Of a stretch of DNA of 43,626 nt, positions 651 to 17,094 are shown piece by piece. The first letter of the stretch is position 1; each line of letters begins with the position of its first letter. The notes below the pieces were generated by a model. It was not told the origin of the DNA. It ran no database searches and worked only from the letters and a program-made list of their open reading frames with translations. Both the position numbers and the translations under genes were made by a program. Origin of the DNA: a virus; the IMG/VR virus record IMGVR_UViG_3300037430_000005, positions 1 to 43,626 of that record; one strand, 5' to 3'.

Positions 651-1088
651 TTACTCGGCCCCACGCTTCTGGGCCGCTGCGGCTTTCACCGCCGCCCGGC
701 TTCGGCGATGGTGGGCCAGCTCACACACGCGGCATACCCGATACCGCCCCCGTTGCTCGAGCGCGTGACCGCGAATGCATAACAGCGGATCGGAATCGCG
801 CCGGTTATGCCGTTGGGTGTAATGATCGGCCCAGCGGCAATTCTCCGGACTATAAGGCCCGTTCACATCAATCCGATCCAGCGTGAGGCCCGGCGGACAC
901 CGGCCCATGTCACTCAGAAACGCCAGATAATCGTGCCGCCATCGATCGCACACGATGATGCCTCTGGCCCCGTAGTGCTTGAACTTCTTATCCGTCTGGC
1001 AGTAGCAGCGGCTTTTCGTGCCAATCCACGCCCGATATTCGCGAGTCCCGGGACGGCCTTTCCCTTGCGGCGCTTCGCCATGTGTCAT
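651..1088 (-). CDS. Homing-endonuclease-associated DNA-binding protein (AP2/HNH-like motif), paralog of 19834..20505
   Basis: Motifs [51 protein letters not shown], plus a C-terminal Cys cluster CIRGH..CRVC. ATG 1088 overlaps the terL TGA as ATGA. An alternative ATG lies at 1097. Confidence 0.5.
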
Positions 1089-2410
1089 GACAGGCATACA
1101 AGGCCCACGCTCACAATCAGAAACAGCATTTCCGCCCACGCCTGCCCGCCCCGGCCGGGCGGTTGCCACTGCTTGATCCCCTTCTCGGTCGGCGTCTTAT
1201 GTCGGACCGCCAGATACCGAAAGGCATCCGCCCCATGACTCGCCGAATCGTGCACCGGGGTCGCCTTGAACTCCCGGAGCCGCTGGTTGTAATCCCGCCG
1301 GTAGTGCTGCAGGGCTTCTAACCCGGGCGCGGTTTTCGTCGCATCGAACCAGCACCGGGGAAACAGCATCCGGGCCGCATGAATCCCTTCTTCGATGGGC
1401 AGGTTCGGGCAGATGCGGAACTTGATCCCCAGACTCGCCGCCGTTTCAATCCGCGAGCGCCCACTACCGAGTTCCCGGACTTCGATATCATGCGGCGCCC
1501 AATGCTGGCCGTAGGTGTAGCGTTTCGTGGTCAGGACTTGCGCGTAGTGCGCGAGCCCTTCCCCTTGGGCTTCGTAGTAATCGATGATCCGAATTTCGCC
1601 GCCTCGGAGGGATTGACTAAACCATATCGCCGTAGAATCTCCCACACCAAGATCCCAGTCGGTATCGACCGGAAGTACAGGGTCGTACGGCACATTGGAC
1701 ACACGCCCACCAGTTCGCGCGGCCTCAAGCTCTGCACTGTAGATCGCCCCTTTGACGGCCGCGTCGAACGAGCATTCAAACTCTTGCGCGTACTCATCGG
1801 CGGTCATCACTTTCCGGGCTTCCGCCAGCTCCAGCGGCGTCAGGATGCCCGTCTCCGACGCTTTGTAGACCGCGCTGAACCAACTCGGCTCGCTCTGGGC
1901 ATACTTGTGGAGCTCGTAAAACTGGTTCTTCCCATTGGGCGTCCCCAGGAACAAGGCCCACCCCGCCCGATCGGAGAGCGCCGGCCGGAGCACGGTCGAG
2001 AAGATGTCCGAGGCGTGCAAGCCGTATTCATCGGGAATGACCCCGTCCAGATACAACCCGCGCAAGCTGTCCGGGTCATCGCCCCCATACACCCGCACCT
2101 GGCCCCCATTGGGGTAATCGATCCGCAACTCCGACTCGTTGAACTTCACCCCGGGAATCGGCCGCGCGTAGTGCTTGCAGTAATCCCAGACGGTCGCCTT
2201 GCCTTGCCGATACGTCGGGCCGATGTAGGCGAACCGGGGCCGTTCCTTCGGGCACATCAAGGCCCCTTGCTGCAAGAGGTTCACGGCCAGGACGCTCTTG
2301 CCCCACCGCCGATGACACACCAACACGCCAAAGCGATGCGCCCGCATGGCCTTGGCGACGACGCGCTGTAAGGGCCGGGGTTGATACGGAATCTGGACTT
2401 CAGTCAGCAT
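1085..2410 (-). CDS. terL: Terminase large subunit
   Basis: 441 aa. Walker A-like CHRRWGKS and Walker B-like [10 protein letters not shown]. Nuclease motifs [13 protein letters not shown] and [13 protein letters not shown]. Lies upstream of the portal. Confidence 0.85.
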
Positions 2411-2822
2411 CGCCCAGGACGTGAATGATCTTCAACCCGCCCGAGAGGTCAATGTGCTGCTCTTGCTCCGCGGGCTTATCAAGCGCCCGGTTCAGTAGGT
2501 CCGTGAAGGCTTGCACCGAGGGGTCTTTTTCCCAGACCTCAATGGTTTCTTCCCCGACCTGCCCGGCCATCGCGGGCCCGACCCGAATGAATTTACCCGT
2601 CTTTTTGTCGCGCGTCACGAGATAGCTCAAGCCTTTCGCGTTCGCAATCTGGGCCGCAATCAGGGGTTGCAGTTCCGCCATGATCTGCAGCCGGGCGACT
2701 TCCCTGGCCGCTTCCTTCGTCACGGTCGTGGCGAGTTTGGTGCCCTTCGGCATCCCCGCGCCCTTCCGTGCGCCGCCGTGGGTGAGTTTCAAGATTTCAA
2801 GCGCTCGCCGGAAACGAGCCAT
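2400..2822 (-). CDS. Putative terminase small subunit or DNA-binding packaging protein
   Basis: 140 aa, overlaps the terL start by 11 nt. Basic GGARKGAGMPKG N-terminal motif. The call rests mainly on position. Confidence 0.4.
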   Translation of the reverse strand: MARFRRALEILKLTHGGARKGAGMPKGTKLATTVTKEAAREVARLQIMAELQPLIAAQIANAKGLSYLVTRDKKTGKFIRVGPAMAGQVGEETIEVWEKDPSVQAFTDLLNRALDKPAEQEQHIDLSGGLKIIHVLGDAD

Positions 2823-3274
2823 TCAGGATGCGGGCACGCGACTAAGTGAGCCAGCGCCTTCAGACACCGCCGGTGCCAGGTCCGCGCCTCGGGGTCATGC
2901 ACCTCCCGAATTGACTTGAACCGCTGGATCAGGGCCTTCGCACGAAGACGCTGGCGTTCCTCAAACGACCTCATCCCTGGCGCGACGTTACATAGGCCGT
3001 TCGCTTGGTAAATCTCCTGACGCTCACGGTCAATAGCCTGCGACTCAGTCAACCCATCAGCCAGACACGTCACCGTTGGGCGGACACCGCGGCGCAAGAG
3101 GGCCAGAATCCTCACCGCCAGTGCCTGATTGTGACTGGTGCCCGCGCGCGCCTGCCGCTCGTGCTGGTAACAGCGCGAACCCGTGCCCTTCCCCACGTAG
3201 AACACGCCGCCGTCGGTCGGATCGCTCAAGGCGTAGACGTAATAGCCGACGAAGCGCGTCTGTTTCGGGGTCAT
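2789..3274 (-). CDS. GIY-YIG domain nuclease
   Basis: N-terminus YYVYALSDPTDGGVFYVGKGTGSRCYQH (GIY..YIG spacing), followed by RERQEIYQANG. Confidence 0.6.
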   Translation of the reverse strand: MTPKQTRFVGYYVYALSDPTDGGVFYVGKGTGSRCYQHERQARAGTSHNQALAVRILALLRRGVRPTVTCLADGLTESQAIDRERQEIYQANGLCNVAPGMRSFEERQRLRAKALIQRFKSIREVHDPEARTWHRRCLKALAHLVACPHPEWLVSGERLKS

Positions 3275-3361
3275 CTTGATCCAGTATGCGCCCTTAGTCG
3301 CTCATCCTCGCGCCTTCGGCTCGGGGGAGGCCCTAAACGTACGAAAATACAACGCCTTATA

Positions 3362-3423
3362 CGCGAAGGCGACCGACAGGTGACTCGTCACCGTCGGCTT
3401 ACCGCGTCCTCGATGCGGAGTCA
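3362..3423 (+). repeat. Structured intergenic repeat R1 (CGCGAAGG-N28-CTTACCGCG)
   Basis: Box1 at 3362..3369, box2 at 3398..3406. Internal hairpin CCGACAGGTGAC/GTCACCGTCGG. The tail abuts the RHH stop codon at 3421. Confidence 0.85.
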
Positions 3424-3600
3424 TTCATCAGATTCACGAAACAACACCGCATCCACGCCTTCCCGACGCAGCGAGACGTTCAGGGCACGGCGGATATACT
3501 CTGCGACCGAGATGTGCCGCAGCCGCGCTGCGTGCTTCAGCCAGTCGTGTTCCTCGACCGTCGCCTGCAATCGAATGGTGGACGCGGTAAGTGTCCTCAT
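3421..3600 (-). CDS. Ribbon-helix-helix (CopG/Arc-type) DNA-binding protein, 59 aa
   Basis: Not in the ORF track because it is under 60 aa. Hand translation: MRTLTASTIRLQATVEEHDWLKHAARLRHISVAEYIRRALNVSLRREGVDAVLFRESDE. ATG 3600 overlaps the upstream TGA as ATGA. AAGGAG Shine-Dalgarno (SD) site at 3617..3622. Confidence 0.7.
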   Translation of the reverse strand: MRTLTASTIRLQATVEEHDWLKHAARLRHISVAEYIRRALNVSLRREGVDAVLFRESDE

Positions 3601-3625
3601 GGCTGCTCTGTCGGTCTCCTTCGCG
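3566..3625 (-). repeat. Structured repeat R2 (CGCGAAGG-N26-CTTACCGCG), inverted relative to R1
   Basis: Box1 at 3618..3625, box2 at 3583..3591 (minus strand). Contains the SD site, start codon and first codons of the RHH gene. Confidence 0.85.
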
Positions 3626-3800
3626 TATGAACGTCTTCCGTATCTTCTTTATTCTCTTGAGGTTGCGCGGGCACGGCGGGGGGAAGGGCGGCAGCGGGTG
3701 GCTCGTCAGGGTCCGAGCGTGGGGCCGAACACTCCGGCTCGTGAACAATCTCTCCGTCAACTTCCAGTGCGCTCCCGCAATAGCCGCAGGCATATGGCAT
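3597..3800 (-). CDS. Hypothetical small protein with an N-terminal Cys pair
   Basis: 67 aa, MPYACGYCGS...EPEC. Abuts the neighbouring genes, with stop/start coupling on both sides. Confidence 0.5.
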   Translation of the reverse strand: MPYACGYCGSALEVDGEIVHEPECSAPRSDPDEPPAAALPPAVPAQPQENKEDTEDVHTRRRPTEQP

Positions 3801-4022
3801 TTACTTGTCCTCCGCGAGCATCCATGCCCACAACTTCAACAATGTGTCAGCGTCAAAGGCTTGCCCGGTTTCGATCCGCATCAACGTCGCGTGTCCGATT
3901 CCAATCTGCGGCGCGAGGTCACGTAATGAGAGCCCGCGCACAGTGCGATACAGACGGAACATCTCGCCGAGGCGCGTCTGGCGCTGTATACGAGCGCGCA
4001 GCGTGGACGGTCGTTTAAGCAT
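3801..4022 (-). CDS. XRE-family helix-turn-helix regulator
   Basis: In-frame ATG at 4022. GEMFRLYRTVRGLSLRDLAPQIGIGHATLMRIETGQ is a typical XRE HTH. Confidence 0.65.
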   Translation of the reverse strand: MLKRPSTLRARIQRQTRLGEMFRLYRTVRGLSLRDLAPQIGIGHATLMRIETGQAFDADTLLKLWAWMLAEDK

Positions 4023-4467
4023 CGCCGTGCGGCCCCTGCCCGTCACAGTGACGACATTGGTCGAGTGGGTGATAACAGATCGCGCAGTAGCCGAAGGAAC
4101 CTGCTGGCCGCTTCTCCTCTGGGGGACACGCCGCGACATCTTCCGGCCCCGGACGGAGAGCGACCGCTAAAGCCGCTTCCAGTTCTTCCGCCCGCAAGTT
4201 GCGGTAGAACGCATCATCGGGCGTCCCGACGGGTTGGGACCATCCGAGCTTATAACGCGCGGAGTCGCGCTCAGCGGTCAGGGTGCGAATCTGAGCTTCC
4301 AATGACTCGACTTCTGAAGCTGGGGGACACGCCGCGACGAGGTCGGCCCACTCCACCCACGTCCCTTCCGCGTCAGGCTCCAGATGAATGAGGCCGGATG
4401 CGCCCGCTAATCGCATACGGTATCGTCGCAGCGTCTCCACCCACGCGGGGAGTGTCTTAATAGTCAA
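4015..4467 (-). CDS. Hypothetical protein with a C-terminal Cys/His cluster
   Basis: The start is uncertain: TTG 4467 with GGAAAGGA upstream, or ATG 4416. The C-terminus reads YCAICYHPLDQCRHCDG. The longer listed N-terminus would run through repeat R3. Confidence 0.5.
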   Translation of the reverse strand: MTIKTLPAWVETLRRYRMRLAGASGLIHLEPDAEGTWVEWADLVAACPPASEVESLEAQIRTLTAERDSARYKLGWSQPVGTPDDAFYRNLRAEELEAALAVALRPGPEDVAACPPEEKRPAGSFGYCAICYHPLDQCRHCDGQGPHGDA

Positions 4468-4485
4468 CGCTTTACAATCCTTTCC

Positions 4486-4545
4486 CGCGAAGGGGACAGG
4501 CCGAGCGTCCCCCTGATCACTTACCGCGTCCACCAGCACGCTTAG
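4486..4545 (+). repeat. Structured repeat R3 (CGCGAAGG-N26-CTTACCGCG)
   Basis: Box1 at 4486..4493, box2 at 4520..4528. Internal hairpin GGGGAC/GTCCCC. Overlaps the stop and last codons (GRGK*) of 4517..4741. Confidence 0.85.
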
Positions 4546-4741
4546 ACGGAGGCACGGGACGTGCGGCCCGTCGTGCATCCTCTTCGCGCCAGTCCAACAT
4601 CGTCGTCACCATCGCCTTGACCGCCTGCGGCACATACCCCGCTGCGAGATCGGCCGCTTGCTGTTCGTTGACAAGTAAATAAAACTCGGTTTCGTGCTCC
4701 TGGTTCCGTTGGGCGAGCTCGGCGCGGAGGGCGTCCGTCAT
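4517..4741 (-). CDS. Hypothetical protein, 74 aa
   Basis: ATG 4741 overlaps the stop of 4738..5115 as ATGA. Translation MTDALRAELAQRNQEHETEFYLLVNEQQAADLAAGYVPQAVKAMV... Confidence 0.55.
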   Translation of the reverse strand: MTDALRAELAQRNQEHETEFYLLVNEQQAADLAAGYVPQAVKAMVTTMLDWREEDARRAARPVPPSKRAGGRGK

Positions 4742-5115
4742 GTTTCCTTGATCACGATCCCGTATTGCGCCTCGACGTGTTTCTTCTTCCACCGATAGAG
4801 GGGGGTTTTGAAGCCTTTCACGTCCTCGACCACATACGGCGTCGTGCGCCTGTCGGAGTACTTGAAATCCCCCCGATACTCCCCGATCCGTCGCGCGGCC
4901 GGCGTCCGAAACGCCCCCGCCAGATAGCCCGTCGTGGACTCCACCAGTAAGGGGAACCGCGGTTGCAGTTGAAGATCCCAAATCTTCCCCGCCTTCTCCA
5001 GCAGCTTCAATTCCTGATACCGCCGCGCTTCCTTCGCGGAATGGAACGTAATCCCGTCCACCGTCGTGGGCACGGCGCCATACTTGGACCGCTTGCGCGA
5101 TGGCCCGACCCTCAT
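4738..5115 (-). CDS. DUF1064-like putative endonuclease or resolvase
   Basis: KYGAVPTTVDGITFHSAKEARRYQELKLLEKAGKIWDLQLQPRF ... YRGDFKY ... VVEDVKGFKT follows the DUF1064 pattern. Confidence 0.55.
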   Translation of the reverse strand: MRVGPSRKRSKYGAVPTTVDGITFHSAKEARRYQELKLLEKAGKIWDLQLQPRFPLLVESTTGYLAGAFRTPAARRIGEYRGDFKYSDRRTTPYVVEDVKGFKTPLYRWKKKHVEAQYGIVIKET

Positions 5116-5300
5116 TCCGTATACCCCTTGAGATCCGCCTGCGCCTTGACCGCCCGCTGCGCCTCATAAAACGTCATGCGCTGCAACGCGTACGATCCAC
5201 ACGGGGTACACGGCCCATACGCGGCCTGATCATCCCGTTGGACCCGATTGCCGCGCCAGCCGCAAAGCTTACAGATCACGGCGTAACGAGGTTTCCTCAC
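5112..5300 (-). CDS. Small zinc-ribbon protein
   Basis: 62 aa with a GTG start. CKLCGW...CTPCG. ATGA coupling with the downstream gene. Confidence 0.5.
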   Translation of the reverse strand: MRKPRYAVICKLCGWRGNRVQRDDQAAYGPCTPCGSYALQRMTFYEAQRAVKAQADLKGYTE

Positions 5301-5320
5301 GAACGATCACGACGATCATG

Positions 5321-5383
5321 CGCGAAGGGGACATGCAGAGCGTCCACCGTGCCGCTTACCGCGTCCCCCATCTCACAGGTCAT
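5321..5383 (+). repeat. Structured repeat R4 (CGCGAAGG-N26-CTTACCGCG)
   Basis: Box1 at 5321..5328, box2 at 5355..5363. The tail CCCATCTCACAGG ends at the stop of 5380..5823. Confidence 0.85.
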
Positions 5384-5823
5384 CGGCCAAACCGCGTCGG
5401 CTTCTTGCGTGACGTGCCCGCTTCCTGGCTGAAATCATCTGCACTCTTGGGTTTCAACTTGAACCGTTCGCCGGCCGCACAGGTGCACGGCGTCCCGTAC
5501 TCATGTTGATAGTTAGAGAGCGGGGCCGTCACACACAGCCGGCGATACTTACCCGGCCGCTCGTGCCAGGTGTCCGTCCGGCTCGAGACACCGTTGCAGC
5601 GATCCCCCCGCCGGCAGAGCTTCGTGATCAACCCGGTGTCCTGGCACTGCGAGCAGAGGTATTTCCATTCGCGCACCTGGGGCCAGGCGGCGCGCAAGGT
5701 GCGCTCGAGCGTGGCGTTGAGCTCGGCTGGCGAGGCGCCTTCCGCCCGCGCCAGATCGCGCAGCCGGAGCGCTTCCTTCAGCGTCGCCGCGAGCCCTTCC
5801 GCGGTCACGAGGGGCGGCGTCAT
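5380..5823 (-). CDS. Cys-rich hypothetical protein
   Basis: 147 aa. CSQCQDTG...C..C...CTC. ATGA overlap with the upstream gene. Confidence 0.55.
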   Translation of the reverse strand: MTPPLVTAEGLAATLKEALRLRDLARAEGASPAELNATLERTLRAAWPQVREWKYLCSQCQDTGLITKLCRRGDRCNGVSSRTDTWHERPGKYRRLCVTAPLSNYQHEYGTPCTCAAGERFKLKPKSADDFSQEAGTSRKKPTRFGR

Positions 5824-6572
5824 GCGGGCACCGGATGCCGGGTTTCCCAGGCCGAGAGCCGATCCGACAACCAGCTGAACTTGGCGCGGAACACTTCAAT
5901 GCCCCGGTCGCTGGCGACGATAAACTCGTCGTCTGTTTTGTCCGACAGGAGAATTTGGGCGTATTTTTTAAGGCGATCGAGGTCCGTCGCGCCGAGCATT
6001 TCCTTCACCATCGCCCCGTGTTTCGCCCAACTGACGAGGTAGTCCGCGCCTGAGCGTCGGGCTTTGTATTCGCTCTGAAACCAGACGAGAAATTCACGGA
6101 CGCGGGGGTCCGCCGGCTTTTTCGGCGGCTCAACAACCGAAGGTTGTTTCTGTACTTTGGGATTGGGATTGGGAGTCGTGTTACCAACACCGTTACCAAC
6201 GCCGGTGTACGCCGCCTGTAACGGTGTTACAGCGCCCGTACGGAGCCGTCGCACCCGTTCAGTTGTTTCGGCCCGTTTCTTGAGGATTTTGGCCTTCGAG
6301 GCTTGATATTTCAGATAGTCATGGACGAGAAAGCCGTCCACGCCCCTGCGTGTGGTCGCCGACCAGAGGCGTAAGTCACACAATTTTGTGGAAAAAACTT
6401 CAGGATGGTCCGCCGGCACGAGCCGCGCCACTTGACTCACCGGGATGAACCCGTTCGTGAGCAGCCGATTGCAGTAGCAGAGGCCGGCGACGTAGAGCCA
6501 CGCGCCCAGCGGCCCCGCCGAGACGATCTTCGGATGGTCGGGAAAATGATCATCGATTCGCACCCACGGCAT
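5820..6572 (-). CDS. Putative replication-associated DNA-binding protein (replisome-organiser-like N-terminus)
   Basis: 250 aa. N-terminus WVRIDDHFPDHPKIVSAGPLGAWLYVAGLCYCNRLLTNGFIP. Located in the early operon. The function is inferred weakly. Confidence 0.3.
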   Translation of the reverse strand: MPWVRIDDHFPDHPKIVSAGPLGAWLYVAGLCYCNRLLTNGFIPVSQVARLVPADHPEVFSTKLCDLRLWSATTRRGVDGFLVHDYLKYQASKAKILKKRAETTERVRRLRTGAVTPLQAAYTGVGNGVGNTTPNPNPKVQKQPSVVEPPKKPADPRVREFLVWFQSEYKARRSGADYLVSWAKHGAMVKEMLGATDLDRLKKYAQILLSDKTDDEFIVASDRGIEVFRAKFSWLSDRLSAWETRHPVPA

Positions 6573-6826
6573 TACTTCGGTGCCACCTTTCGCGCATCGC
6601 CCGCTGTGGACTTGATTGTTGGCTATCTGACAGAACGCCGATCGTTACGTGCGTTACACTCCCCCGGGATGGCCCAGATCGTGATCTTCCCCGCCGTCGA
6701 ACCCGTCACCTGTGGATCCTGGGCGGGCGTCCCGGTCCATGTCTGGACACCGGCATCCCTCCCTGGATCGCCCTGCGTCTGTGGACGATCCGTGCTGCCG
6801 ACGTACGACGACGACGAATACTTTCC

Positions 6827-6893
6827 CGCGAAGGGTCGAGATCAGGTAATTCCTTCCTGCCACTTACCGCGCCGCCCATCTCATGATTCATAG
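6827..6893 (+). repeat. Structured repeat R5 (CGCGAAGG-N28-CTTACCGCG)
   Basis: Box1 at 6827..6834, box2 at 6863..6871. The tail CCCATCTCATGATTCAT covers the stop codon of 6881..7249. Confidence 0.85.
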
Positions 6894-7249
6894 AGCAGGG
6901 ACCGCACAGCGGCATCCTTTGCTTCGAGCAACTTCCGCAGCGCCACGGTCCGCTCGGGGTTGCGCGGGTAAGTGGCTTCCAGATGGACCGCGAGATCACA
7001 AAACGGCCGACTCCCGGTCTGTAACTGCGCCGGCAGATGCGCGTACCGAAAGAACTGCATCAAGGGCTCCTGAACGGCTTTCCCGGCCTGCTGTGTCCGC
7101 TCTACCGCCTCGACCTTTTCTTTCATTGCCTTGATCCGGATTTCGGCAGCAGTCGGATGCATCCGTTCTAATTGGTCGAGCACCTCACGCCGCGTGTCGC
7201 CTTCCGCTTCGCCCAACACGTTGCCGTCCCGGTCAAACGCTTGTCCCAT
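6881..7249 (-). CDS. Hypothetical phage protein
   Basis: ATG 7249 is preceded by AAAGGAG. 122 aa, ...FFRYAHLPAQLQ...ALRKLLEAKDAAVRSLL. Confidence 0.6.
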   Translation of the reverse strand: MGQAFDRDGNVLGEAEGDTRREVLDQLERMHPTAAEIRIKAMKEKVEAVERTQQAGKAVQEPLMQFFRYAHLPAQLQTGSRPFCDLAVHLEATYPRNPERTVALRKLLEAKDAAVRSLLYES

Positions 7250-7366
7250 GTGCGCGCTCCTTTGAAGGTGGCCCGACAAAAATCGCGGGCGGCTGCGGAA
7301 TCTCGGCATTGATCGGTCGCCACAAATGCAAGGGAATTATATACTTGAGTGCGAAGCATGATTGAA

Positions 7367-7807
7367 TCACGATTCTGTCTTGCAGTCGGCCGTCTCCCTG
7401 TCGTGTTCGTGCTTGCAGACAGGGCAGATGACTCCCGATGTGAAGTACTCGCGCAGCCGGTCCCAACAGCCCTCGCAAAACGGGCCGACGAAATCAGCGT
7501 AGGCCGGGTGTGGCTTCGCCGACTCGCCGCAATTGGTGCAGATGGGAGGACCAGCACGCCAAGGCACGCCATCGGCAGAATGAATCTGATGGTCGCGGTG
7601 ATATTCACAGTCCTTGCACCAGATGTCGCGGTCGTCTCCTGGCTCATGGGGCGTGCGCGAATTGAACGGGTGCGGCACCAGTTCTTCGTCCGGACATTCG
7701 TGGTCAAGATCGAAGACGAACCCAGAGTGGCAGTTGCAGCAATGAACATCCACCGCCGTGCCGTGCTCGCAGACGTGATCGCCGATGTCGTTGACCGTGA
7801 CTTTCAT
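7367..7807 (-). CDS. Cys/His-rich (multi-zinc-site-like) protein, cargo of the IS element
   Basis: ATG 7807 with AAGGAG upstream. Motifs HVCEH..HCCNCH..HEC..WCKDCEYH..CTNC..CEGC..CPVCKHEH. Confidence 0.6.
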   Translation of the reverse strand: MKVTVNDIGDHVCEHGTAVDVHCCNCHSGFVFDLDHECPDEELVPHPFNSRTPHEPGDDRDIWCKDCEYHRDHQIHSADGVPWRAGPPICTNCGESAKPHPAYADFVGPFCEGCWDRLREYFTSGVICPVCKHEHDRETADCKTES

Positions 7808-7808
7808 G

Positions 7809-7940
7809 TCACTTCTCCTTCGCGATCTTCGTGGCCCGGCGCTTCCGCCGTCGGGCGGGTTTACTCTTTGCCTTCGGGCGGTAGGCCAGCACCACGTCCA
7901 CAATCGCGTCCAGTTGTTTTGGAACCTTCGTCTTCGTCAT
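7809..7940 (-). CDS. Small basic protein (43 aa), cargo of the IS element
   Basis: Hand translation MTKTKVPKQLDAIVDVVLAYRPKAKSKPARRRKRRATKIAKEK. ATG 7940 overlaps the upstream TGA as ATGA. Confidence 0.4.
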   Translation of the reverse strand: MTKTKVPKQLDAIVDVVLAYRPKAKSKPARRRKRRATKIAKEK

Positions 7941-8332
7941 GGCCGGTTCTCATCGCCGTCCATCGCGTCAGTTCCTGCGAACGGTGGGTAGGGCTCGACG
8001 CGCCCGCTCTCCACCTTAGCGATGGCGGCTTCAGCTTTGGCGTATGGACAGTTGTCCCAGTGCGTCTTAGCCGGATTTCGGAGCACGCCGGAATCACACA
8101 TCGGGCAACCCCATCGCTCAGCGAAGATTCCCCGCAGGGCCGCGAGCAGGTCCGGCGCGGCGGCGATCAATCGGGCGTTAGCAGCGTTCTCCGCACGCGA
8201 CAGACCCGATCCAATATCCGGCGTGCAAGGCGCGGTGATTGCGAAGTGGCTGACCTTCGCGATGGCCATCCCATCGCCTTCGTTGATTTCCCACGGTCCA
8301 GGTGTATGCGTCGCGGTCCAAGTTGTGTCCAT
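7937..8332 (-). CDS. Hypothetical protein (GPWE...ANARLIAAAPDLL motif), cargo of the IS element
   Basis: 131 aa. The SD site TAGGAG overlaps the transposase stop, so the gene is co-transcribed with tnp. Confidence 0.6.
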   Translation of the reverse strand: MDTTWTATHTPGPWEINEGDGMAIAKVSHFAITAPCTPDIGSGLSRAENAANARLIAAAPDLLAALRGIFAERWGCPMCDSGVLRNPAKTHWDNCPYAKAEAAIAKVESGRVEPYPPFAGTDAMDGDENRP

Positions 8333-8341
8333 CGCAATCTC

Positions 8342-9265
8342 CTACTGAATCAGTGCCTTGTAAGTGAGTCGTTTGTCGGCCCTCCCGTCCACGAACGAGT
8401 CGAGCCGGTCGAGCGTGTGAATCTTGACGTTGCCTTCGTTCAGGCGGAACGTGAACTCGTCCACGTAGCGCGGGAGATGCTTCGGGCTGGCGTGATGGTA
8501 GACACCCATCAGCCCGCGCTTCAGGACCGCCCAAACACTCTCAATGCTGTTCGTGTGCGCCGCGCCGCGTGCGTATTCCCCGAGCGAGTGGTTGATGGTG
8601 TCGTGCCGAAAGAACAGCCCGTCGAGCCCGTCGAAGATGGCGCTGTCGTCGGTGTAGAGTTGCGAGCCCGCTTCGACGTTCCGGTGAATCTCGCCGTGAA
8701 CCTCATCGAACGTCATCTGACCGGACGGCCGCGCCTGCATCCGGCCGCCGCGTTCCTTCATGCCGAGCACGGCCGTTTTGCCGACTGGCCCGCGTCCCGC
8801 GTGCAGCTTTTTGTTCTCGTGCTTGTTCCCCTCCAGGCCGCCGACGAAGGTTTCGTCAATCTCGATGATGCCGCGCAACTTCCGCAGGTTCCGGCCGCCG
8901 CACGCTTCGCGGAGTCGGTGCAACTGGAACCATGCCGTCTTCTGGGTCACGCCGATCTGCTTGGCGAGCTGGAGACTGGAGATCCCCTTGCGGGCCGTGA
9001 CGAGCAGATACATGGCGTAGAGCCACTTGTGCAGCGGGATGTGCGACCGCTCAAGGATCGTGCCGGTTCGCACGGTGAAGACTTCCCGGCAGGGGTTGCA
9101 GCGGTAGTAGCCGACGCGCTTCGTGCTCACGACGCCAGCCTGACCCTTACAGACCGGGCAAACGGGGCCAACCGGCCAGAGTCGAGACTCGAAATACACG
9201 CGGGCCGACTCCTGATTGGGGAACCGCTCGAACAGTTGGAAGGTACTGATAGTGCTTTTCGCCAT
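8342..9265 (-). CDS. tnp: IS1595-family DDE transposase
   Basis: 307 aa. N-terminal zinc ribbon CPVCKG...YRCNPC. DDE-region motifs IIEIDETFVGG, LYTDDSAIF and HTNSIESVWAVLKRG. Confidence 0.85.
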   Translation of the reverse strand: MAKSTISTFQLFERFPNQESARVYFESRLWPVGPVCPVCKGQAGVVSTKRVGYYRCNPCREVFTVRTGTILERSHIPLHKWLYAMYLLVTARKGISSLQLAKQIGVTQKTAWFQLHRLREACGGRNLRKLRGIIEIDETFVGGLEGNKHENKKLHAGRGPVGKTAVLGMKERGGRMQARPSGQMTFDEVHGEIHRNVEAGSQLYTDDSAIFDGLDGLFFRHDTINHSLGEYARGAAHTNSIESVWAVLKRGLMGVYHHASPKHLPRYVDEFTFRLNEGNVKIHTLDRLDSFVDGRADKRLTYKALIQ

Positions 9266-9371
9266 GCCCTAATTGTAGCAAAAACGCCGTGCGCACTCAA
9301 GTATATAATTCCCCAATAGAGACACATCGCCAGCGCGGTACCGCAGTGGTGACAGGCTTGGACGTCGTGGC

Positions 9372-9677
9372 TCACGCGAAGTCCTTATCCCAGGCAATCG
9401 CCACATCGCCAGCGATCGGATTCGTCGTGCCGGGCTTGCATACGGAGTGATACAGCTTGGTGGCGGCCGGGTTGATCGGTTTGCCGTCGATCAAGCCGAC
9501 GTCATCCACGAGCATGATGCGCCCGTCGCGCAGATTCACCGTGTCGATGGTGTCCGCGCCGATCATGCGCTGGCACCAATTGAGCAAGATAGAACGGCCG
9601 ACATGGTGTTCTTCGTCCTGGCCGTTCGTGCGGAGAATTGTCACGACGGCGAGTTTCTTCATCGTTTCAGTCTTCAT
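9372..9677 (-). CDS. DUF3846-like protein
   Basis: ...RMIGADTIDTVNLRDGRIMLVDDVGLIDGKPINPAATKLY...IAGDVAI. The start is ATG 9677 or 9662. Confidence 0.5.
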   Translation of the reverse strand: MKTETMKKLAVVTILRTNGQDEEHHVGRSILLNWCQRMIGADTIDTVNLRDGRIMLVDDVGLIDGKPINPAATKLYHSVCKPGTTNPIAGDVAIAWDKDFA

Positions 9678-9909: not shown

Positions 9910-9970
9910 GCGGTCACCATCGTCAACGCGGTAAGTGGACGCTGGGAATTACCTGTCGGTTACCTTCGCG
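9907..9970 (-). repeat. Structured repeat R6 (CGCGAAGG-N27-CTTACCGCG)
   Basis: Box1 at 9963..9970 overlaps the last codons and TAA of 9960..10163. Box2 is at 9927..9935. The tail ACGATGGTGACCGCATGAGC supplies the start of 9667..9909. Confidence 0.85.
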
Positions 9971-10163
9971 CATAAAATTCTTGATCTTCGTCGTGCCCGC
10001 GTCGGGCGATCACCCGCAGTCGATCCAATCGATCACTGGCTTCCTGATCCCACGGCCGCGATCGAAAGCGGACATCTTCCTCCCGTCGTTGCAGGAAGAC
10101 GCGGACGTAGATGCCCCCCATCGCCACCACAAAGACGCCGACGACGAGCAGGACATACCTCAT
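9960..10163 (-). CDS. Small membrane protein
   Basis: 67 aa with the N-terminal hydrophobic helix MRYVLLVVGVFVVAMGGIYV. Confidence 0.5.
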   Translation of the reverse strand: MRYVLLVVGVFVVAMGGIYVRVFLQRREEDVRFRSRPWDQEASDRLDRLRVIARRGHDEDQEFYARR

Positions 10164-10510
10164 AGCTTGAACGCCAGCGCCTCGCGCGGCCCCTTGACGA
10201 CGATCTCGTCATCGGCATTCCCCGTGATCGTGATCCGTCCCGCATGCTCGAGCCGATGATGCGCGACGCAGAGGTAACAGAGATTCGAGGGCGCCCATAG
10301 GAGCCGCTTGGATTTCGAGCGATAGATGATGTGGTGCAAGTGAATCCCATCCTCCCGGCAGCCGGGGACACTGCAGCGCCGGCCGTCACGGAGTCGCACG
10401 GCTTTGCGTGCCGCCGCTTCCAGGGCCTTGCCGGTGAGCCGTTTCGTCCGCTTGAGCTCCACACCGAGCTTGCCCTTGGGAAACGCGAGCTGGGAGGTAT
10501 CCATGCCCAT
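10160..10510 (-). CDS. HNH endonuclease
   Basis: CSVPGC..GIHLHHIIYRS...NLCYLCVAHHRLEH. ATG 10510 shares one base with the upstream TGA (TGATG). Confidence 0.7.
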   Translation of the reverse strand: MGMDTSQLAFPKGKLGVELKRTKRLTGKALEAAARKAVRLRDGRRCSVPGCREDGIHLHHIIYRSKSKRLLWAPSNLCYLCVAHHRLEHAGRITITGNADDEIVVKGPREALAFKL

Positions 10511-12354
10511 CACGCCGCCCCCGCGAACGACGTCGGATCGCCAAATTGCAACACCGTCACCAGCGTCTGTCGGCCGGGTACGTTCGCCAGCGGCGTCAGG
10601 TGCAGATGCCATTTCTTCTCGCCCGCGGCCACGGCGGTGCCGGGCCACGCGACGGCCTGATCCACCACGGTCGCCACGAGGTCATCGCGCTGCCAGGTGA
10701 GACGGGCCATGCCTGACGGGATCGGCCACTCGGCGACGTTGCCGGTGATCGTCGGGACCACGGGACAATGCCAACGCCATTGCCGTAAGGGATTGCTTTT
10801 GATGCGCGTCTGCATCGCGGCACTGTAGCGGGTGAAATTCGCCAAGAGCTGCGGATCGTCCAGATCGGACGTGTCGGTCACGGTGATCCTGTCCACGGCG
10901 TCCGCGTGCCGCCACTCGATCGTGCGGGTGTACTCCTTGAGGAACGGCGGGATTTTGTAATAGTTGGCCGCGGGAGACAGTACATGGCCGCGCGTCGTGC
11001 CGGCGACGAAGAACACGCCAGGCGCGGTGATGAGGCGGTCCGCGATCCGCGATTCGACGGATGAGCCGAAGCCGGCCAGGAGCATCACGTTGGCGCCTTC
11101 GCCCGTCGTCGTGACCCCGCCGTACGTGATCGGATGCGTCAGCGCCCAGCTGCCTTGGCGGTACAGTTGCACGTCCCCGAAATACGTCACGCCATGATCG
11201 ACGCCGCCATTCGGGTGCGTCGGCGGGAAGTGCGTCATCAGGTGCGAGGCGTCCGCCTGCCACGAGCTGCGGGCACTGACGATCCCTTGCCCGGTCGCGT
11301 TGAAGATCAGCGGGAGCGCGTCGCGGGTGCGCGTCGGGCCATACGGATCAAACAGGAGGAAGGATCGCGCGAGCGGCGGCGTGGCGGCCGTGCCGTACTG
11401 CGCCGTCATGTCCACGACGAACTGGCGCGCATCGGACGAGTCGAAGCACATCGCGGACGCCACCCAATAGGGCGGGCGCACCTTATGCGGTTCCTGCTCG
11501 TCCCCCCATTGAAAGCTCTGCTTCAGATCCGGCGTGATTAGGTGCGTGTAGCGTTGGGCGGCGTGCGCCTGCCACGCCACGACCTCGGGGAAGTGCTCGA
11601 TCCCCACGGCGGCGGCCCCGAGCAGCAGCAGTCGCACGGTCCCCAGGTTGTATTCGGAGCCTTCGATCCACTCCCCGCCTGCCGCCATCTCGACGTAATC
11701 GCGCACGCAGTTGCGGAGCGTGAGCCGGTCCCGGCCCGTGCTGTCATACCCGCCCACGCACGGACGGATGAACAACGCTTGCGCGGGGCCATCATCCGGG
11801 AACGCCTTCGCATAGCAGGCGAGCCCCATGTAGACGCCTGTCACCTGATCAGAATCGACTGTTCGCAGCGGCATCGCCGCGGGTAGCGAGGGGTTCGTCA
11901 ACGCGGAGGTCCACATCGCATCGAGTTGCGCCAGGAATTGCGCGCGTTGCGCCTCGCTCAGCCCCGGCCAGAGCCAGTCGAGGATCACAACCCGTTCCAT
12001 CGCGTATTCCCGCACGTTGTCCTGCTGAAAGGTCGTGGCCGTGAGGAAGCCTTGCAGTTTCGCCCACGCCTTCGCGACGAATGCCACATCCCCTGTCGCC
12101 TGATACGCGATCGTCGCCCACAGGCCCGTGTCCGCGTAGACGGTGCCACTCAGCGCAGCCGTGCGGATCAGGGTCCACCACGGATGGGTCTCGGCGACCA
12201 TGCGGTTGAAGGTCGCTTGCCGGGTCGGCGTCCAGAGCAAGCGGGGGGCGCGGCCCGTGGGACTCGTCACCGGCGGCGGGATCACCACAGGCGGGAGTTG
12301 ATGCGCTTCAATCAACAGGCGCAAGGATTCGATGAACTCAGGATCAGTGCTCAT
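10510..12354 (-). CDS. Polysaccharide-lyase-like protein (heparinase II/III or alginate-lyase type architecture)
   Basis: 614 aa. The N-terminal half is helical and rich in W and A. The central motif is HFPPTHPNGGVDHGVTYFGDVQLYRQGSWALTHPITYG. The C-terminal half looks beta-rich. Assignment is by motif resemblance only. Confidence 0.4.
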   Translation of the reverse strand: MSTDPEFIESLRLLIEAHQLPPVVIPPPVTSPTGRAPRLLWTPTRQATFNRMVAETHPWWTLIRTAALSGTVYADTGLWATIAYQATGDVAFVAKAWAKLQGFLTATTFQQDNVREYAMERVVILDWLWPGLSEAQRAQFLAQLDAMWTSALTNPSLPAAMPLRTVDSDQVTGVYMGLACYAKAFPDDGPAQALFIRPCVGGYDSTGRDRLTLRNCVRDYVEMAAGGEWIEGSEYNLGTVRLLLLGAAAVGIEHFPEVVAWQAHAAQRYTHLITPDLKQSFQWGDEQEPHKVRPPYWVASAMCFDSSDARQFVVDMTAQYGTAATPPLARSFLLFDPYGPTRTRDALPLIFNATGQGIVSARSSWQADASHLMTHFPPTHPNGGVDHGVTYFGDVQLYRQGSWALTHPITYGGVTTTGEGANVMLLAGFGSSVESRIADRLITAPGVFFVAGTTRGHVLSPAANYYKIPPFLKEYTRTIEWRHADAVDRITVTDTSDLDDPQLLANFTRYSAAMQTRIKSNPLRQWRWHCPVVPTITGNVAEWPIPSGMARLTWQRDDLVATVVDQAVAWPGTAVAAGEKKWHLHLTPLANVPGRQTLVTVLQFGDPTSFAGAA

Positions 12355-14240: not shown

Positions 14241-14392
14241 GGCTGCCCCGCCGCCAAGAACACCACGACACAGGTCGGGCACATCGAATGGGAGGTCGGC
14301 AGGGTCGGATCGCCGACGTGTTCGATCCGGCGGCACCACGCACACTGGATCGTGAAGTCTTCCGGCACCGGCGCGAGGTCTGGGTTGTTCAT
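14237..14392 (-). CDS. Small zinc-ribbon protein (51 aa)
   Basis: Hand translation MNNPDLAPVPEDFTIQCAWCRRIEHVGDPTLPTSHSMCPTCVVVFLAAGQP. High third-position GC. ATGA overlap with the upstream gene. Confidence 0.55.
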   Translation of the reverse strand: MNNPDLAPVPEDFTIQCAWCRRIEHVGDPTLPTSHSMCPTCVVVFLAAGQP

Positions 14393-14592
14393 GGTCTGGC
14401 TCGGAATCGTGGCCGCGGTAACTCTTTCGGTGGACGCTCTGCGTATCGCCGTCGCGGGAAGATTTCTTGGTACGCTTCGTCGTCGTAGTCCTCATCCGCT
14501 GCTGTGACGTCTCCGCGGATCGCTTTCCCGATCCCCACGGCGACACACAGCACCAAGGCGACGCCGAGCAGGATCCAGCCCCAGGGATTCAT
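14389..14592 (-). CDS. Small membrane protein whose C-terminal ~25 aa are encoded by repeat R7
   Basis: MNPWGWILLGVALVLCVAVGIG is a transmembrane helix. The tail FPRRRYAERPPKELPRPRFRARP is read from the repeat. Confidence 0.5.
   Translation of the reverse strand: MNPWGWILLGVALVLCVAVGIGKAIRGDVTAADEDYDDEAYQEIFPRRRYAERPPKELPRPRFRARP
14390..14456 (-). repeat. Structured repeat R7 (CGCGACGG-N26-GTTACCGCG), a divergent copy
   Basis: Box1 at 14449..14456, box2 at 14414..14421. The tail ends at ATG 14392. Confidence 0.75.
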
Positions 14593-14855
14593 ACGGGGCT
14601 GTTCTTGAGATACCGCGTGACCAGCTCCCCGCTGTACCGCTTCTTCCGCCCCACGGGTCGGCGAAATTCAAACCGCTTCAGCTTCCCGGCTTTCTGAAAC
14701 GCGTAGAACGTCGCGGGCCGCAGGTTGAGGGCGCGCATCAATTCCCCGGCGCCCATCGCGTTCGGTAAGGGTTCGCCGACGTGATACGGCCTGGCAGGCT
14801 CGTGGATCACCGCAGACGGCTTCTGGTCTTCCAACAGTCCAACTGGCTCGGTCAT
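14589..14855 (-). CDS. HTH (excisionase/MerR-type HTH_17) protein, first gene of the early leftward operon
   Basis: ATG 14855. The listed 14891 start is a TTG that coincides with a TTGACA -35 box. GELMRALNLRPATFYAFQKAGKLKRFEF...YSGELVTRYL. Confidence 0.55.
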   Translation of the reverse strand: MTEPVGLLEDQKPSAVIHEPARPYHVGEPLPNAMGAGELMRALNLRPATFYAFQKAGKLKRFEFRRPVGRKKRYSGELVTRYLKNSPV

Positions 14856-14891: not shown

Positions 14892-14916
14892 GTGTCTGAG
14901 GGTCTGTTGGCCATGC

Positions 14917-14938
14917 GTACGGATCCATGGATCGGTAC
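14917..14938. promoter_or_regulatory. 22-bp near-perfect palindrome, candidate operator
   Basis: GTACGGATCCATGGATCGGTAC. The 12-bp core GATCCATGGATC is perfect and the outer GTAC arms are also symmetric. It lies between the divergent repressor and the early operon. Confidence 0.4.
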
Positions 14939-15165
14939 GATGATCCGACAGTCACGGCTGAGGTAGGCGGTTTGTCAGTGCCGTTGTGACGAATCGATAG
15001 CGAAAGTCTGTAGGCGACGGTAGGACAGGACCGGAGTCGGTCAGAACTGGCTAGATTTATGGCTAGACGCTATGCGACACTGTGCCCAATTATTCCAGTA
15101 TCGACTTCCCGATATTCCACATGGGTATATCTGTCGTCATAAATCGTAAATCCGATGAGTCTGTG

Positions 15166-15615
15166 ATGAGCGACACGACTGTAGCTTTTACTGTAGGGGA
15201 CGTGATCCGCAAACTCCGCAAAGATCGCCATTGGTCTATCCGCAAGCTGCAACACGAAAGCGGCATCGGTCGGATGACGATCTCCGCGATCGAACGCAAC
15301 GAATCGAACTACCAGAAAGACACGCTCGATGCGCTCGCCCTCGCGTTCAAGATGAAAAGCGGCGCCGAGCTGGAAGCCCTGGCGAGTCTGTCGCCGTCGC
15401 GCACGCGTCGTGCGACCGATAGCGATCTCGCGCCGGAATGGATCGCGTTCACGCGGCGCGTGATGCGGCTCAATCGCCAGGCGCAAGGCGCGTTGCATGT
15501 GATCGTGTTGGCGTTTGAAGACGCGGGCGCCGTGAGCCCGCACGACGCCCCGGAGGCCGACGACCCCGCCGCGCCGGCGCCCGCCCATCCCCATCCCCCG
15601 GCACATCAGGGCTAA
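15166..15615 (+). CDS. CI-like XRE-family repressor
   Basis: ATG 15166. VGDVIRKLRKDRHWSIRKLQHESGIGRMTISAIERNESNYQKDTLDALALAF. Divergent from the early operon and adjacent to the integrase. Confidence 0.7.
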   Translation: MSDTTVAFTVGDVIRKLRKDRHWSIRKLQHESGIGRMTISAIERNESNYQKDTLDALALAFKMKSGAELEALASLSPSRTRRATDSDLAPEWIAFTRRVMRLNRQAQGALHVIVLAFEDAGAVSPHDAPEADDPAAPAPAHPHPPAHQG

Positions 15616-15724: not shown

Positions 15725-15928
15725 ATGGCCCCGTCGTCGTTGGCGTCGATCGTTGCGCCCGTCGTCCACCTGATTCATCCCCACCAGACCGCGGTGCTCC
15801 AGCTCCTGATGCGGCATGCGATTGCGTTGCTTGCCCTCGAGGGGGACGCCTTCGTGCAGACGGCCGATGATCTGCTGGTGTCCCGCCTGCGCGATCTCGC
15901 GGCCGTCGCGGACAAGCTCCCCCACTAA
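15725..15928 (+). CDS. Hypothetical protein (67 aa)
   Basis: High third-position GC in this frame. Convergent with int, overlapping it by 4 nt. The overlapping minus ORF looks worse. Confidence 0.4.
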   Translation: MAPSSLASIVAPVVHLIHPHQTAVLQLLMRHAIALLALEGDAFVQTADDLLVSRLRDLAAVADKLPH

Positions 15929-16926
15929 CGGGCGAAGCGGCCGGTGAGCAGATCGCTGACGCGTCGTTGCCGGCTCGCCTGTAAGGGCCCGTAGTACGCG
16001 CGGGTCGTCTCGATCTGGGTATGGCCCAGGAGCCCTTGCACGTCGCCCAGATCGGCGCCGGCCTCGAGCGCGGCAAAGGCAATCGCATGCCGCGCGTTAT
16101 ACGGCCGAATGCCTTTCGGCCAGCCGCACGACCGTAAGAGCCGCGCTTGCTTCGTCGTATCAAACCACCCCCAGGCGTGGGCCACGATGAACAACCGCCA
16201 CGCGGCAAGTTGATCGCGATTGAGATAGACGGGATGCGCGGGTTCGTTCTTGGCGCTGCGCACGATCCAGATCTTCTTTCGGAGCTGCACGTCTTCCGGC
16301 GTGGCGGCCATCAACTGCCCGGCTCGCTGGCCTGTCGTGACGAGGACGCGATACCGCGCATACGCCTGGGCGTTGCCGGTGCGCTTCAACCGCTCCCCCA
16401 CCCGGCGAATCGTCTCGAGCGGCACGTCCACGGGCTGCGCCTTCGGCGTTTTGGGTTTCTTCGCGTCGGCGATGGGATGGCGGGCATGCTTGCCTTGGAG
16501 CGTTTGATAGAGCTCGCGCAGCACCCGGCAGCGATGCAGGATCGTTTTGTCGCTGACGCCATCGATCTGCCACGCTGCAATCGCCAGGTTCACATGCTCC
16601 GTCTTGATCCGGCTGAGCGCCCACGACCCCAAGCGCGGGAGCCACGCGCGCAGATGGGACCGATCCGCAGGGCCACTCACCCGGCCAGCGATCTGTTTGA
16701 CGTACGTGGTCACGGCCTCCGTCAATGTCCCGCGCAGCATTGGCACCGCGGCGTCGGCCGCCCGATCCAACAGCTCAGCCGTGGTCCGCGCTCGCCACGC
16801 CTGCATCAACAGCACGTCCATATCGGGCGGGAAGCGTTTCGTCCGGACCTGGCCCTTCGCCTTCACCCGGACATCAAAGCCATACCGATCCCGATGAATC
16901 CCGGTCGCCACCAACGTCCGGTCCAT
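15925..16926 (-). CDS. int: Tyrosine integrase
   Basis: ATG 16926 with GAGAGGA upstream. C-terminal catalytic region RPYNARHAIAFAALEAGADLGDVQGLLGHTQIETTRAYYG. Confidence 0.85.
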   Translation of the reverse strand: MDRTLVATGIHRDRYGFDVRVKAKGQVRTKRFPPDMDVLLMQAWRARTTAELLDRAADAAVPMLRGTLTEAVTTYVKQIAGRVSGPADRSHLRAWLPRLGSWALSRIKTEHVNLAIAAWQIDGVSDKTILHRCRVLRELYQTLQGKHARHPIADAKKPKTPKAQPVDVPLETIRRVGERLKRTGNAQAYARYRVLVTTGQRAGQLMAATPEDVQLRKKIWIVRSAKNEPAHPVYLNRDQLAAWRLFIVAHAWGWFDTTKQARLLRSCGWPKGIRPYNARHAIAFAALEAGADLGDVQGLLGHTQIETTRAYYGPLQASRQRRVSDLLTGRFAR

Positions 16927-17094
16927 GTGTCCTCTCTTTTTTGGGTCGTGGCCGAGCCCAACGACGGGCCTCCACCCCACCCCCTCCATTCCGCTGTCCG
17001 AAAACGGGTGGAGTTTACTAGAGATTTCAAGAGGTGGCAAATGAACGCACTTCGGGCGGGAATCGGCGGAATCGGTGAATTTGCTGAGGAAAAG

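Follow-up and report, generated by a model that had tools for sequence, protein, structure and literature searches.

Bipartite repeats on either side of a ribbon-helix-helix gene: candidate junction elements at gene borders of a phage genome

The DNA analysed here, referred to as the window, is IMG/VR virus record IMGVR_UViG_3300037430_000005 at its full length of 43,626 nucleotides, and the feature under study is a ribbon-helix-helix (RHH) gene near its left end with a copy of a dispersed repeat, R1 and R2, on either side. An initial annotation, made from the sequence alone, had described positions 3362-3625 as a 264-bp cassette enclosing one gene. The bracket was borne out: R1 and R2 are inverted copies with box1 (CGCGAAGG) outermost and box2 ((C)TTACCGCG) innermost, and a 59-aa open reading frame (ORF) is the sole well-supported gene between them. 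The size was revised, as the repeats extend beyond their boxes and the unit comes to about 320 bp (roughly 3335-3655). R1 sits 14 nt after the stop codon of the enclosed gene and is read box2-first relative to the minus-strand transcription. Coordinates of all features are collected in table 1.

R2 is fused to the 5' end of the RHH gene, and holds the last nine codons and the stop of the upstream 67-aa ORF together with the RHH ATG and its first 8-9 codons. The ATG and about nine codons had been placed between the two boxes of R2; only the ATG and two further codons were found there, codons 4-6 (L-T-A) being box2 itself and codons 7-9 the tail. The conserved RHH domain begins at residue 7-9, and residues 1-8 are accordingly element-derived. 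Box1 of R2 had been taken for the Shine-Dalgarno site of the gene, but its AAGGAG lies 15 nt before the ATG, too distant for a good site, and since the ATG overlaps the TGA of the 67-aa ORF, translational coupling to that ORF appears the likelier start mechanism. No homologue of the 67-aa ORF was found among 5.8 billion proteins.

The assignment of the enclosed protein as RHH, proposed earlier from the letters, was confirmed by an AlphaFold2 (AF2) model and by Foldseek matches, which agree. The model (predicted local distance difference test score 84.8) has helices at residues 15-27 and 32-46 after an extended N-terminus, and its top 25 Foldseek matches are nearly all RHH proteins, among them Arc, AmrZ, CopA, ParD and AtaR (template modelling (TM) scores 0.6-0.9; Arc, 0.70-0.89). 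Homologues were found 65 times among 1.84 billion cluster representatives and form a small distinct family with a conserved C-terminal motif, GVDAVL(L/F)RE. Pfam NikA-like, DUF6290, TacA1 and RHH_1 match 13, 8, 6 and 2 of 18 family members, respectively, all below cut-off; the TacA1 match to the window protein has E 0.034 and 14.6 bits (cut-off 21). The protein thus has the same beta-alpha-alpha RHH fold as P22 Arc and Mnt, CopG, omega and DUF1778/TacA, but differs from the Arc, CopG and TacA families in its sub-cut-off Pfam matches, its lack of a toxin partner and its own GVDAVL(L/F)RE family. No GNAT or other toxin gene stands beside it as in a TacAT-type pair, the neighbours being the 67-aa ORFan and a GIY-YIG gene.

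The repeat is bipartite, with box1 (CGCGAAGG), 27-29 nt and box2 (CTTACCGCG), and nine copies, R1 and R2 included, were found in the window (R1-R9) when a copy was defined as CGCGAAGG with at most one mismatch followed after 27-29 nt by TTACCGCG. In Markov-1 simulations 0.007 such patterns were expected (simulated maximum 1), and CGCGAAGG by itself occurs 16 times against 4.6 expected. Alignment showed that the repeat reaches past its boxes, by a purine-rich tract of about 20-30 nt on the outer side of box1 and by about 10-16 nt past box2. Pairwise identity among the window copies is 56-71%. In 17 aligned copies the two 8-mers are invariant and the spacers variable (27-30 nt), and by eye the invariant positions include third codon positions of the reading frames examined. 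Such strict conservation indicates that something recognises the 8-mers. A repeat conserved mainly for its coding content (M-G-D-A-V-S...V-P-F-A on the box2-first strand) was rejected on account of these third codon positions; the frame is also broken by the spacers of 27-30 nt, and of the seven 27-nt copies three run antisense to real genes. A literature search with the box sequences gave nothing relevant.

All nine copies lie at gene borders within the early/lysogeny region at 3.3-18.9 kb, and none in the structural module. Relative to local transcription R2, R6, R7 and R8 are box1-first, with a start codon 17-22 nt past box2 or inside the element, and R1, R3, R4, R5 and R9 are box2-first, each beginning at a stop codon or at most 17 nt from one. 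The distance to the next start ranges from inside the element to more than 80 nt. Two further accounts of this placement were discarded: a switch of orientation around a replication origin, which seven of the nine copies fit, is by our own calculation not significant for nine elements, and for segmental duplication no paralogy was found among the flanking genes.

Gene ends at these borders are in part made of repeat sequence. Element-derived C-terminal tails were found in the 67-aa ORF, in ORFs 9960-10163 and 14389-14592, and in gene 6669-6893, whose C-terminal residues (about 25 aa) are supplied by R5; the homologue of the last gene (about 59% aa identity) in L030, one of the contigs compared here under L numbers, at about 1512-1765 on the minus strand, ends differently. 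Box1 of R3, with its flank (PFAGKD), shares the reading frame of the downstream gene 4015-45xx. At R4 and at L030B, one of two copies in L030, the sense strand carries a mini-ORF that begins on or beside the stop codon of the preceding gene and overlaps the following gene by GTGA at its end, so that an insertion need not break translational coupling. An in-frame copy, CGCGAATG...CTTACCGCG, was found at 8198-8272 of L220, inside a 504-aa ORF (8003-9517) with repeated 'AACPP' motifs; this ORF is homologous to window gene 4015-45xx, whose matching segment is shorter and degenerate (…IRTLTAERD…).

Copies in other phages were sought by a pattern scan of metagenomes, which returned at least 120 matches, mostly due to chance, and true members were separated with an nhmmer profile. 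Among the matches listed, the profile search gave two copies in L030, two in L142/L210, two and a degenerate remnant in L220 (the same as L045), one each in L123 and L208, and one weak copy in L229. The contigs that bear copies are from soil and groundwater phages with few or no detectable proteins in common with the window. Presence and absence at orthologous sites could be read at two borders. At the R4 junction, which separates the 147-aa from the 62-aa gene, GCCGATGA is followed in the window by 79 nt and GTG, and L142 reads GCCGATGA with an overlapping ATG start (ATGA). At the 3' end of a 60-aa Zn-ribbon gene an R9-type copy is present in the window and in L123 and absent from L220.

Relatives chosen by shared genes yielded little. 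In 41 relatives of the large terminase (TerL; 37-76% identity in the best segment) there were no repeat copies and no homologues of the RHH, 67-aa or GIY-YIG genes, and of seven contigs with the closest DUF1064 homologues (66-78% identity) none is syntenic to the R3/R4 region and one has a weak copy. A subfamily-specific pattern run against GTDB genomes gave three chance matches only, and no prophage or host was identified. An origin from repetitive extragenic palindromic (REP)-like sequences of a host was rejected on these grounds, there being no multi-match contig among the matches listed (at least 120) and only those three chance matches in GTDB.

The surroundings of RHH homologues were compared in the same way. 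The closest homologue (54% identity) occurs in two contexts with different upstream genes (L095 2075-2283, L096 1208-1419), without the repeats of the window; a 17-nt direct repeat, TGACCCCAAGCCCGCCA, flanks it there, one copy falling on codons 2-7 of the homologue and the other where the next ORF begins. In L234 an RHH homologue stands between direct start-associated repeats, and around that in L233 no dispersed repeat family was found. An RHH domain in L232 follows, in the same frame, a repeated LLVSGTPGEE linker, and a separate two-box repeat of this contig, GTCGTGCGRTAGCTG ... CGCCCTCCGTGG, is dispersed in both orientations (2749, 4111, 6066, 9244, 11356, 11583). Three consecutive proteins of L232 have the LLVSGTPGEE and acidic-tract linker (7896-7956, 8652-8712, 8881-8941), and one of them ends in RHH. 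L059, a TerL relative, likewise has its own repeat, GCGCGATCTCGGCG, 22-24 nt and GAAGACCTCGCRTCG, in both orientations (2853-3770, 8106-8170, 9285-9358), with a purine-rich and TCTTAT lead-in as in the window repeat. A facing pair of this repeat brackets an RHH-helix-turn-helix fusion gene (3148-3483), the only other RHH-family match among about 230 loci (E 2.6e-5). In L142, L030 and L220 the boxes of the window are present and no RHH-family gene was found in 11-14 kb of sequence.

Signals for transcription and RNA structure were examined at the repeats. R1 folds at -21.3 kcal/mol (z -1.9) and R2 has no stable hairpin (z +1.0 to +1.4); in 12 copies tested only R1 and R8 are markedly negative (z about -1.3 to -4.1), the rest lying at about -1.3 to +1.4. 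RNAalifold gave no covariation on 17 copies, the predicted pairs being only between invariant box ends (CGCGG with TCGCG), and Rfam at its gathering threshold gave no match at the repeats. A conserved hairpin or structured RNA was ruled out by the folding scores and the lack of covariation. A stable hairpin followed by a U-tract on the sense strand, as in an intrinsic terminator, was found at R1 only. Scanning and inspection revealed no convincing sigma-70 hexamers at the repeats in either orientation, and the copies were also rejected as CI/Cro operators, the palindrome of the lysogeny switch being unrelated to the boxes.

The layout had been likened to a gene carried between terminal inverted repeats (TIRs) of about 60 bp, and this likeness is not supported: there is no direct target-site duplication, no cognate transposase, and R1 and R2 are not each other's closest copies. 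They are 67% identical, inside the range of the family, R1 being nearest to R6 and R2 to R4 and R9. The same arrangement recurs, since facing pairs that enclose one or two genes are R1/R2, R8/R9, L030A/B and L142A/B; the other pairs are even less alike than R1/R2, and facing orientation over all close neighbour pairs is 4 of 7 (p=0.07). A direct duplication was found at none of the four. The ATA before each outer box, which had been offered as a possible short duplication, shows inverted and not direct symmetry, the plus strand reading ...TTATA at one flank and TATGA... at the other. The R1-RHH-R2 unit was sought elsewhere, as had been suggested, with no match in GenBank phages, and the RHH homologues lie in other contexts without these repeats. 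The sole transposase of the window is of IS1595 type, and its TIRs are unrelated to the boxes.

A genuine case was available in the window as a positive control against which R1/R2 fall short. The 464-bp element at 21567-22030 carries a gene between TIRs; it holds a single 120-aa ORF (21604-21966), lies inside the structural gene block and is apparently a non-autonomous derivative of the IS1595-type element of the window. The latter also carries two passenger ORFs (7809-7940, 7937-8332), and no 8-bp duplication is visible at its ends. A transposase 68% identical to it, with similar TIRs, occurs in phage contig L228. In L142 a 354-bp sister TIR element was noted at 8555-8908, with an 8-bp duplication (CTTGAAAG) and a 95-aa ORF (8588-8875) that is DUF4326-like by eye only, and a further element of the same TIR family, about 110 bp and without an ORF, at 7941-8050; the two CGCGAAGG-type repeats of that phage enclose the larger one. 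The IS1595-type elements resemble the RHH locus in having a gene between inverted repeats, but R1/R2 lack the perfect 22-bp TIRs, the DDE transposase and the 8-bp duplications (the last being seen in the small derivatives).

Taken with the 4 of 7 count of facing pairs and the unrelatedness of the genes enclosed by the different pairs, the synteny of R9 with its outer neighbour in L123 argues that a pair is two independent junction elements. Our leading, though tentative, reading is that R1 and R2 are small selfish or recombinogenic junction elements, translation-neutral, which come and go at gene borders, recur among soil phages with hardly any or no detectable proteins in common, and delimit accessory genes that can be exchanged. 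An element would be about 80 nt long, made up of the purine-rich tract, CGCGAAGG, a spacer of 27-30 nt, CTTACCGCG and a short tail, and would occupy stop/start junctions of early and lysogeny-region genes in either orientation. The RHH gene would then be an accessory gene with a junction element on either side, and the 264-bp interval would follow from element placement. Elements would be tolerated for their translational transparency, each supplying a stop codon or start region, a mini-ORF that is read through, or a peptide in frame, and the border homology of about 80 nt between co-infecting phages could make genes between two elements exchangeable as modules. The repeats form one family, sit at gene junctions in mixed orientation, vary in presence between phages and are fused to gene ends, and they lack both transposon hallmarks and a conserved RNA structure. 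The mode of spread, by recombination or by some enzyme, and the role in module exchange are our inference from these properties.

Several observations weigh against the junction-element reading. For the elements neither a mobilising enzyme nor a target duplication nor defined ends came to light, and copies only 56-71% identical give no sign of recent bursts. The invariant 8-mers would be no less expected of protein-binding sites under selection than of selfish DNA, and presence/absence polymorphism is also expected of evolving regulatory sites. The four closest neighbour pairs all face one another (4 of 4, nominal p=0.004, a set chosen post hoc), and the RHH-family gene of L059, once more enclosed by a facing pair though of a different repeat, suggests that enclosed genes and repeats are linked in a way that placement by pure chance would not account for.

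The main rival, unlikely in our judgement yet the best placed of the alternatives, is that the boxes are operators for a phage regulator, RHH alone or with a partner, with R1/R2 autoregulatory and the other seven copies forming an early-region regulon. It would account for 8-mers that stay invariant while spacers drift and for the restriction of copies to gene borders of the early/lysogeny region, and box1 and reversed box2 (CGCGAAGG / CGCGGTAAG) form a quasi-inverted pair that would explain the indifference to orientation. The confirmed fold agrees with it, as do the facing pair of a different two-box repeat around the RHH-family gene of L059 and the two-box dispersed repeat of L232, a contig found through an RHH homologue; in the loci examined the presence of RHH goes with that of dispersed repeats (3/3 against about 1/19, Fisher p=0.003, on partial loci and with a crude repeat detector). 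The subsites of known RHH operators (Arc, CopG, MetJ, omega) are about one helical turn apart, and the boxes, 35-37 bp apart, are unlike these. Identical boxes occur in L142, L030 and L220, which have no RHH-family gene in the sequence available, and are missing from the contigs of the closest homologue; L233 lacks a dispersed family and L234 has direct start-associated repeats only. A very conserved binder would be needed, as the boxes are identical between phages whose other DNA-binding proteins are 35-40% identical. The unrelated lysogeny-switch palindrome and the copy in frame inside an ORF in L220 also argue against operators.

A version of the junction-element reading in which the repeats are mobile in their own right was judged improbable. 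The R elements would be non-autonomous mobile elements of about 80 nt that insert at ATGA-type junctions, facing pairs would capture and move genes, and the RHH protein might be a component that binds the boxes; recognition of the boxes by RHH would explain why the RHH gene of L059 is bracketed by a different repeat. Translation would stay coupled through the element's own stop, start or read-through mini-ORF.

Less probable again is that the repeats are transcription signals that make the RHH gene an autonomous unit of 'moron' type, with R2 as a promoter/translation-start module and R1 as a terminator. R1 combines its 11-bp palindrome with a further hairpin that runs into TTGTATTTT on the sense strand, and it stands at the boundary of early and terminase (late) genes. 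Terminators are to be expected in gaps such as those of R5 and R9, which separate convergent genes, and the tails of R6, R8 and L030A run into GGTGACCnCATGAGC, a Shine-Dalgarno sequence and start codon. No sigma-70-like hexamer pair was seen at the repeats by eye or flagged there by the scan, however, although one is found (TTGACA-17-TACACT) in the switch region; five of the nine copies oppose local transcription, hairpins are not conserved (z about 0 in most copies), and the T-rich tracts are interrupted and not beside a stem, R1 excepted. A precedent for promoter-carrying repeats is reported in halovirus HF2, whose intergenic repeat families of about 30-60 bp are described as AT-rich promoter elements (PMC8707807). 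The R elements resemble those in lying between virus genes but are GC-rich, of mixed orientation and without a recognisable promoter.

The original proposal of a mobile R1-RHH-R2 cassette, with solo copies as remnants or non-autonomous relatives, is very unlikely: the box1-outermost arrangement is seen four times with one or two genes inside, a single position distinguishes the outer 21 nt of R1 from those of R2 and an RHH-family gene again lies within a facing pair in L059, but the pairs lack direct target duplications and a linked transposase, R1 and R2 are no more alike than random members, R8 and R9 come from different spacer subfamilies, the enclosed genes are mutually unrelated, R9 in L123 is syntenic with the neighbouring 60-aa gene and not with the enclosed one, RHH homologues occur without repeats, and TIRs identical at 22/22 positions together with an 8-bp duplication mark the real TIR element of this genome.

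Among known dispersed repeats, Rickettsia palindromic elements (RPEs) and the Correia elements of Neisseria are small and non-autonomous, about 80-150 nt. The R elements share with them their shortness, both orientations, tolerance in or at the ends of ORFs with reading frames left open, presence or absence at orthologous sites and the donation of tails to proteins; presence/absence at the R4 and R9-type sites together with the in-frame copy in L220 is RPE-like. They differ in lacking long TIRs, a TA duplication and a conserved hairpin, in residing in phage genomes and not in a bacterial chromosome, and in the strong divergence of all but the two 8-mers. A second comparison is with the start-associated and extended start-associated sequences (SAS and ESAS) of Cluster K mycobacteriophages, the stoperators of Cluster A and the conserved inverted repeat (CIR) sites of phiC31; SAS and stoperators hold a fixed orientation and position relative to a gene or to transcription. 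As with these sites, the R motifs are multi-copy and phage-specific and lie in short intergenic gaps of a temperate phage, and R2, R6 and R8 run into a ribosome-binding site and start codon. Unlike these, five of the nine R copies are reversed, so orientation is not constant, and the motif is bipartite with a variable spacer of 27-30 nt and boxes that do not resemble the lysogeny-switch palindrome.

Table 1. Features of the window, with positions, strands and remarks.
Feature	Position	Strand	Remarks
R1	3362-3406	+	core: box1 CGCGAAGG, 29-nt spacer with 11-bp palindrome, box2 CTTACCGCG; with flanks ~3335-3415
R2	3583-3625	-	core with 27-nt spacer; with flanks ~3573-3655
R3	4486-4528	+	box2 overlaps last codons of 74-aa gene
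R4	5321-5363	+	within 79-nt insertion 5301-5379 between 147-aa and 62-aa genes
R5	6827-6871	+	in overlap of convergent genes 6669-6893 (+) and 6881-7309 (-)
R6	9927-9970	-	TAA of upstream gene directly after box1; next ATG 17 nt past box2
R7	14414-14456	-	box1 CGCGACGG; inside 3' tail of 67-aa membrane-protein ORF 14389-14592, just downstream of cro-like gene
R8	18320-18364	+	10-bp palindromic stem; 18 nt upstream of ATG of gene 18382-18795
R9	18805-18847	-	box1 CGCGAATG; fills 71-nt gap between convergent genes 18382-18795 (+) and 18867-19049 (-)
59-aa RHH gene	3421-3600	-	conserved domain ~residues 8-57; Joint Genome Institute (JGI) annotation DUF1778-like
67-aa ORFan (CxxC...C motif)	3597-3800	-	stop TGA overlaps RHH ATG (ATGA); tail TRRRPTEQP encoded by R2
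Helix-turn-helix (HTH) protein gene	3801-4139		candidate partner of the RHH protein under the operator reading
Terminator-like hairpin CGCCTT-cgcgtat-AAGGCG, then TTGTATTTT	3353-3371	-	made of R1 box1 and flank; downstream of RHH
137-aa gene, function not assigned	18382-18795	+	bracketed by R8(+)/R9(-), second facing pair in window
Small gene (MAQIVIFP...CVCG...)	6669-6893	+	inside minus-strand early operon; missed by simple ORF ranking
TIR element	21567-22030		464 bp; 22/22 identical 22-bp TIRs (GGGACTTATATCGTTGACTCCC); exact 8-bp duplication ATTCTTTG
IS1595-family insertion sequence	7332-9313		1982 bp; perfect 22-bp TIRs GGGAATTATATACTTGAGTGCG; DDE transposase 8342-9265 (Pfam E 5e-39)
Large-terminase-like gene	1085-2410		no Pfam match; assigned by position beside P22-type portal gene
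GIY-YIG endonuclease-like gene	2789-3274	-	atypical codon usage; 88 nt downstream of R1; overlaps start of gene 2400-2822
Replication initiator	5820-6572		
Weak HNH match	10160-10513		Pfam HNH E 0.004, below cut-off
Cro/excisionase-like gene	14589-14853		
TTGACA-17-TACACT promoter-like site	14891-14863		switch region
24-bp near-perfect palindrome CGTACGGATCCA/TGGATCGGTACG	14916-14939		between divergent cro-like and CI-like genes
CI-like repressor	15082-15615		
Integrase	15925-17040		tRNA-like stretch beside gene
Partial tRNA match	17106-17169	-	Rfam 31.6 bits, model positions 9-63; not called by ARAGORN; 66 nt from integrase

The window is a circular assembly in which bases 1-127 are repeated exactly at 43500-43626; this duplication most likely reflects the k-mer overlap of the assembly, which would give a genome of about 43,499 bp. 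Its G+C content is 63.5%, and a JGI soil metagenome contig and a Logan assembly contain the sequence at 100% identity, the source samples being JGI 3300044699 and SRR12917227. The genome is that of a temperate tailed phage, with early genes that read leftward, on the minus strand, from about 14.9 kb into the terminase and structural genes. The tRNA-like stretch next to the integrase is probably an attP core derived from a host tRNA gene, and the palindrome between the divergent genes is a likely operator of the lysogeny switch. No blastn match to region 2400-5400 was found in GenBank phages.

At least two genes, 2789-3274 and 10160-10513, look like free-standing genes for homing-type endonucleases. 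The former, a GIY-YIG gene without relatives among IMG/VR viral contigs, adjoins the RHH unit. ORF 651-1169 appears HNH-like by eye and has no Pfam match.

For annotation, the starts and ends of genes beside such repeats are to be read as partly repeat-derived, as with residues 1-8 of the RHH protein and several C-terminal tails. Dispersed border repeats are among the few sequence features able to explain clean single-gene swaps in temperate phages, and the family described here offers concrete cases in a precise 79-nt gain or loss, donated protein ends, and identical 8-mers in phages with few or no detectable proteins in common. If it is true that the RHH protein binds the boxes, soil phages of an uncultured group would have a dispersed regulon of a new kind, defined by the element; if it is true that the elements move, they would represent a new class of translation-neutral junction element.

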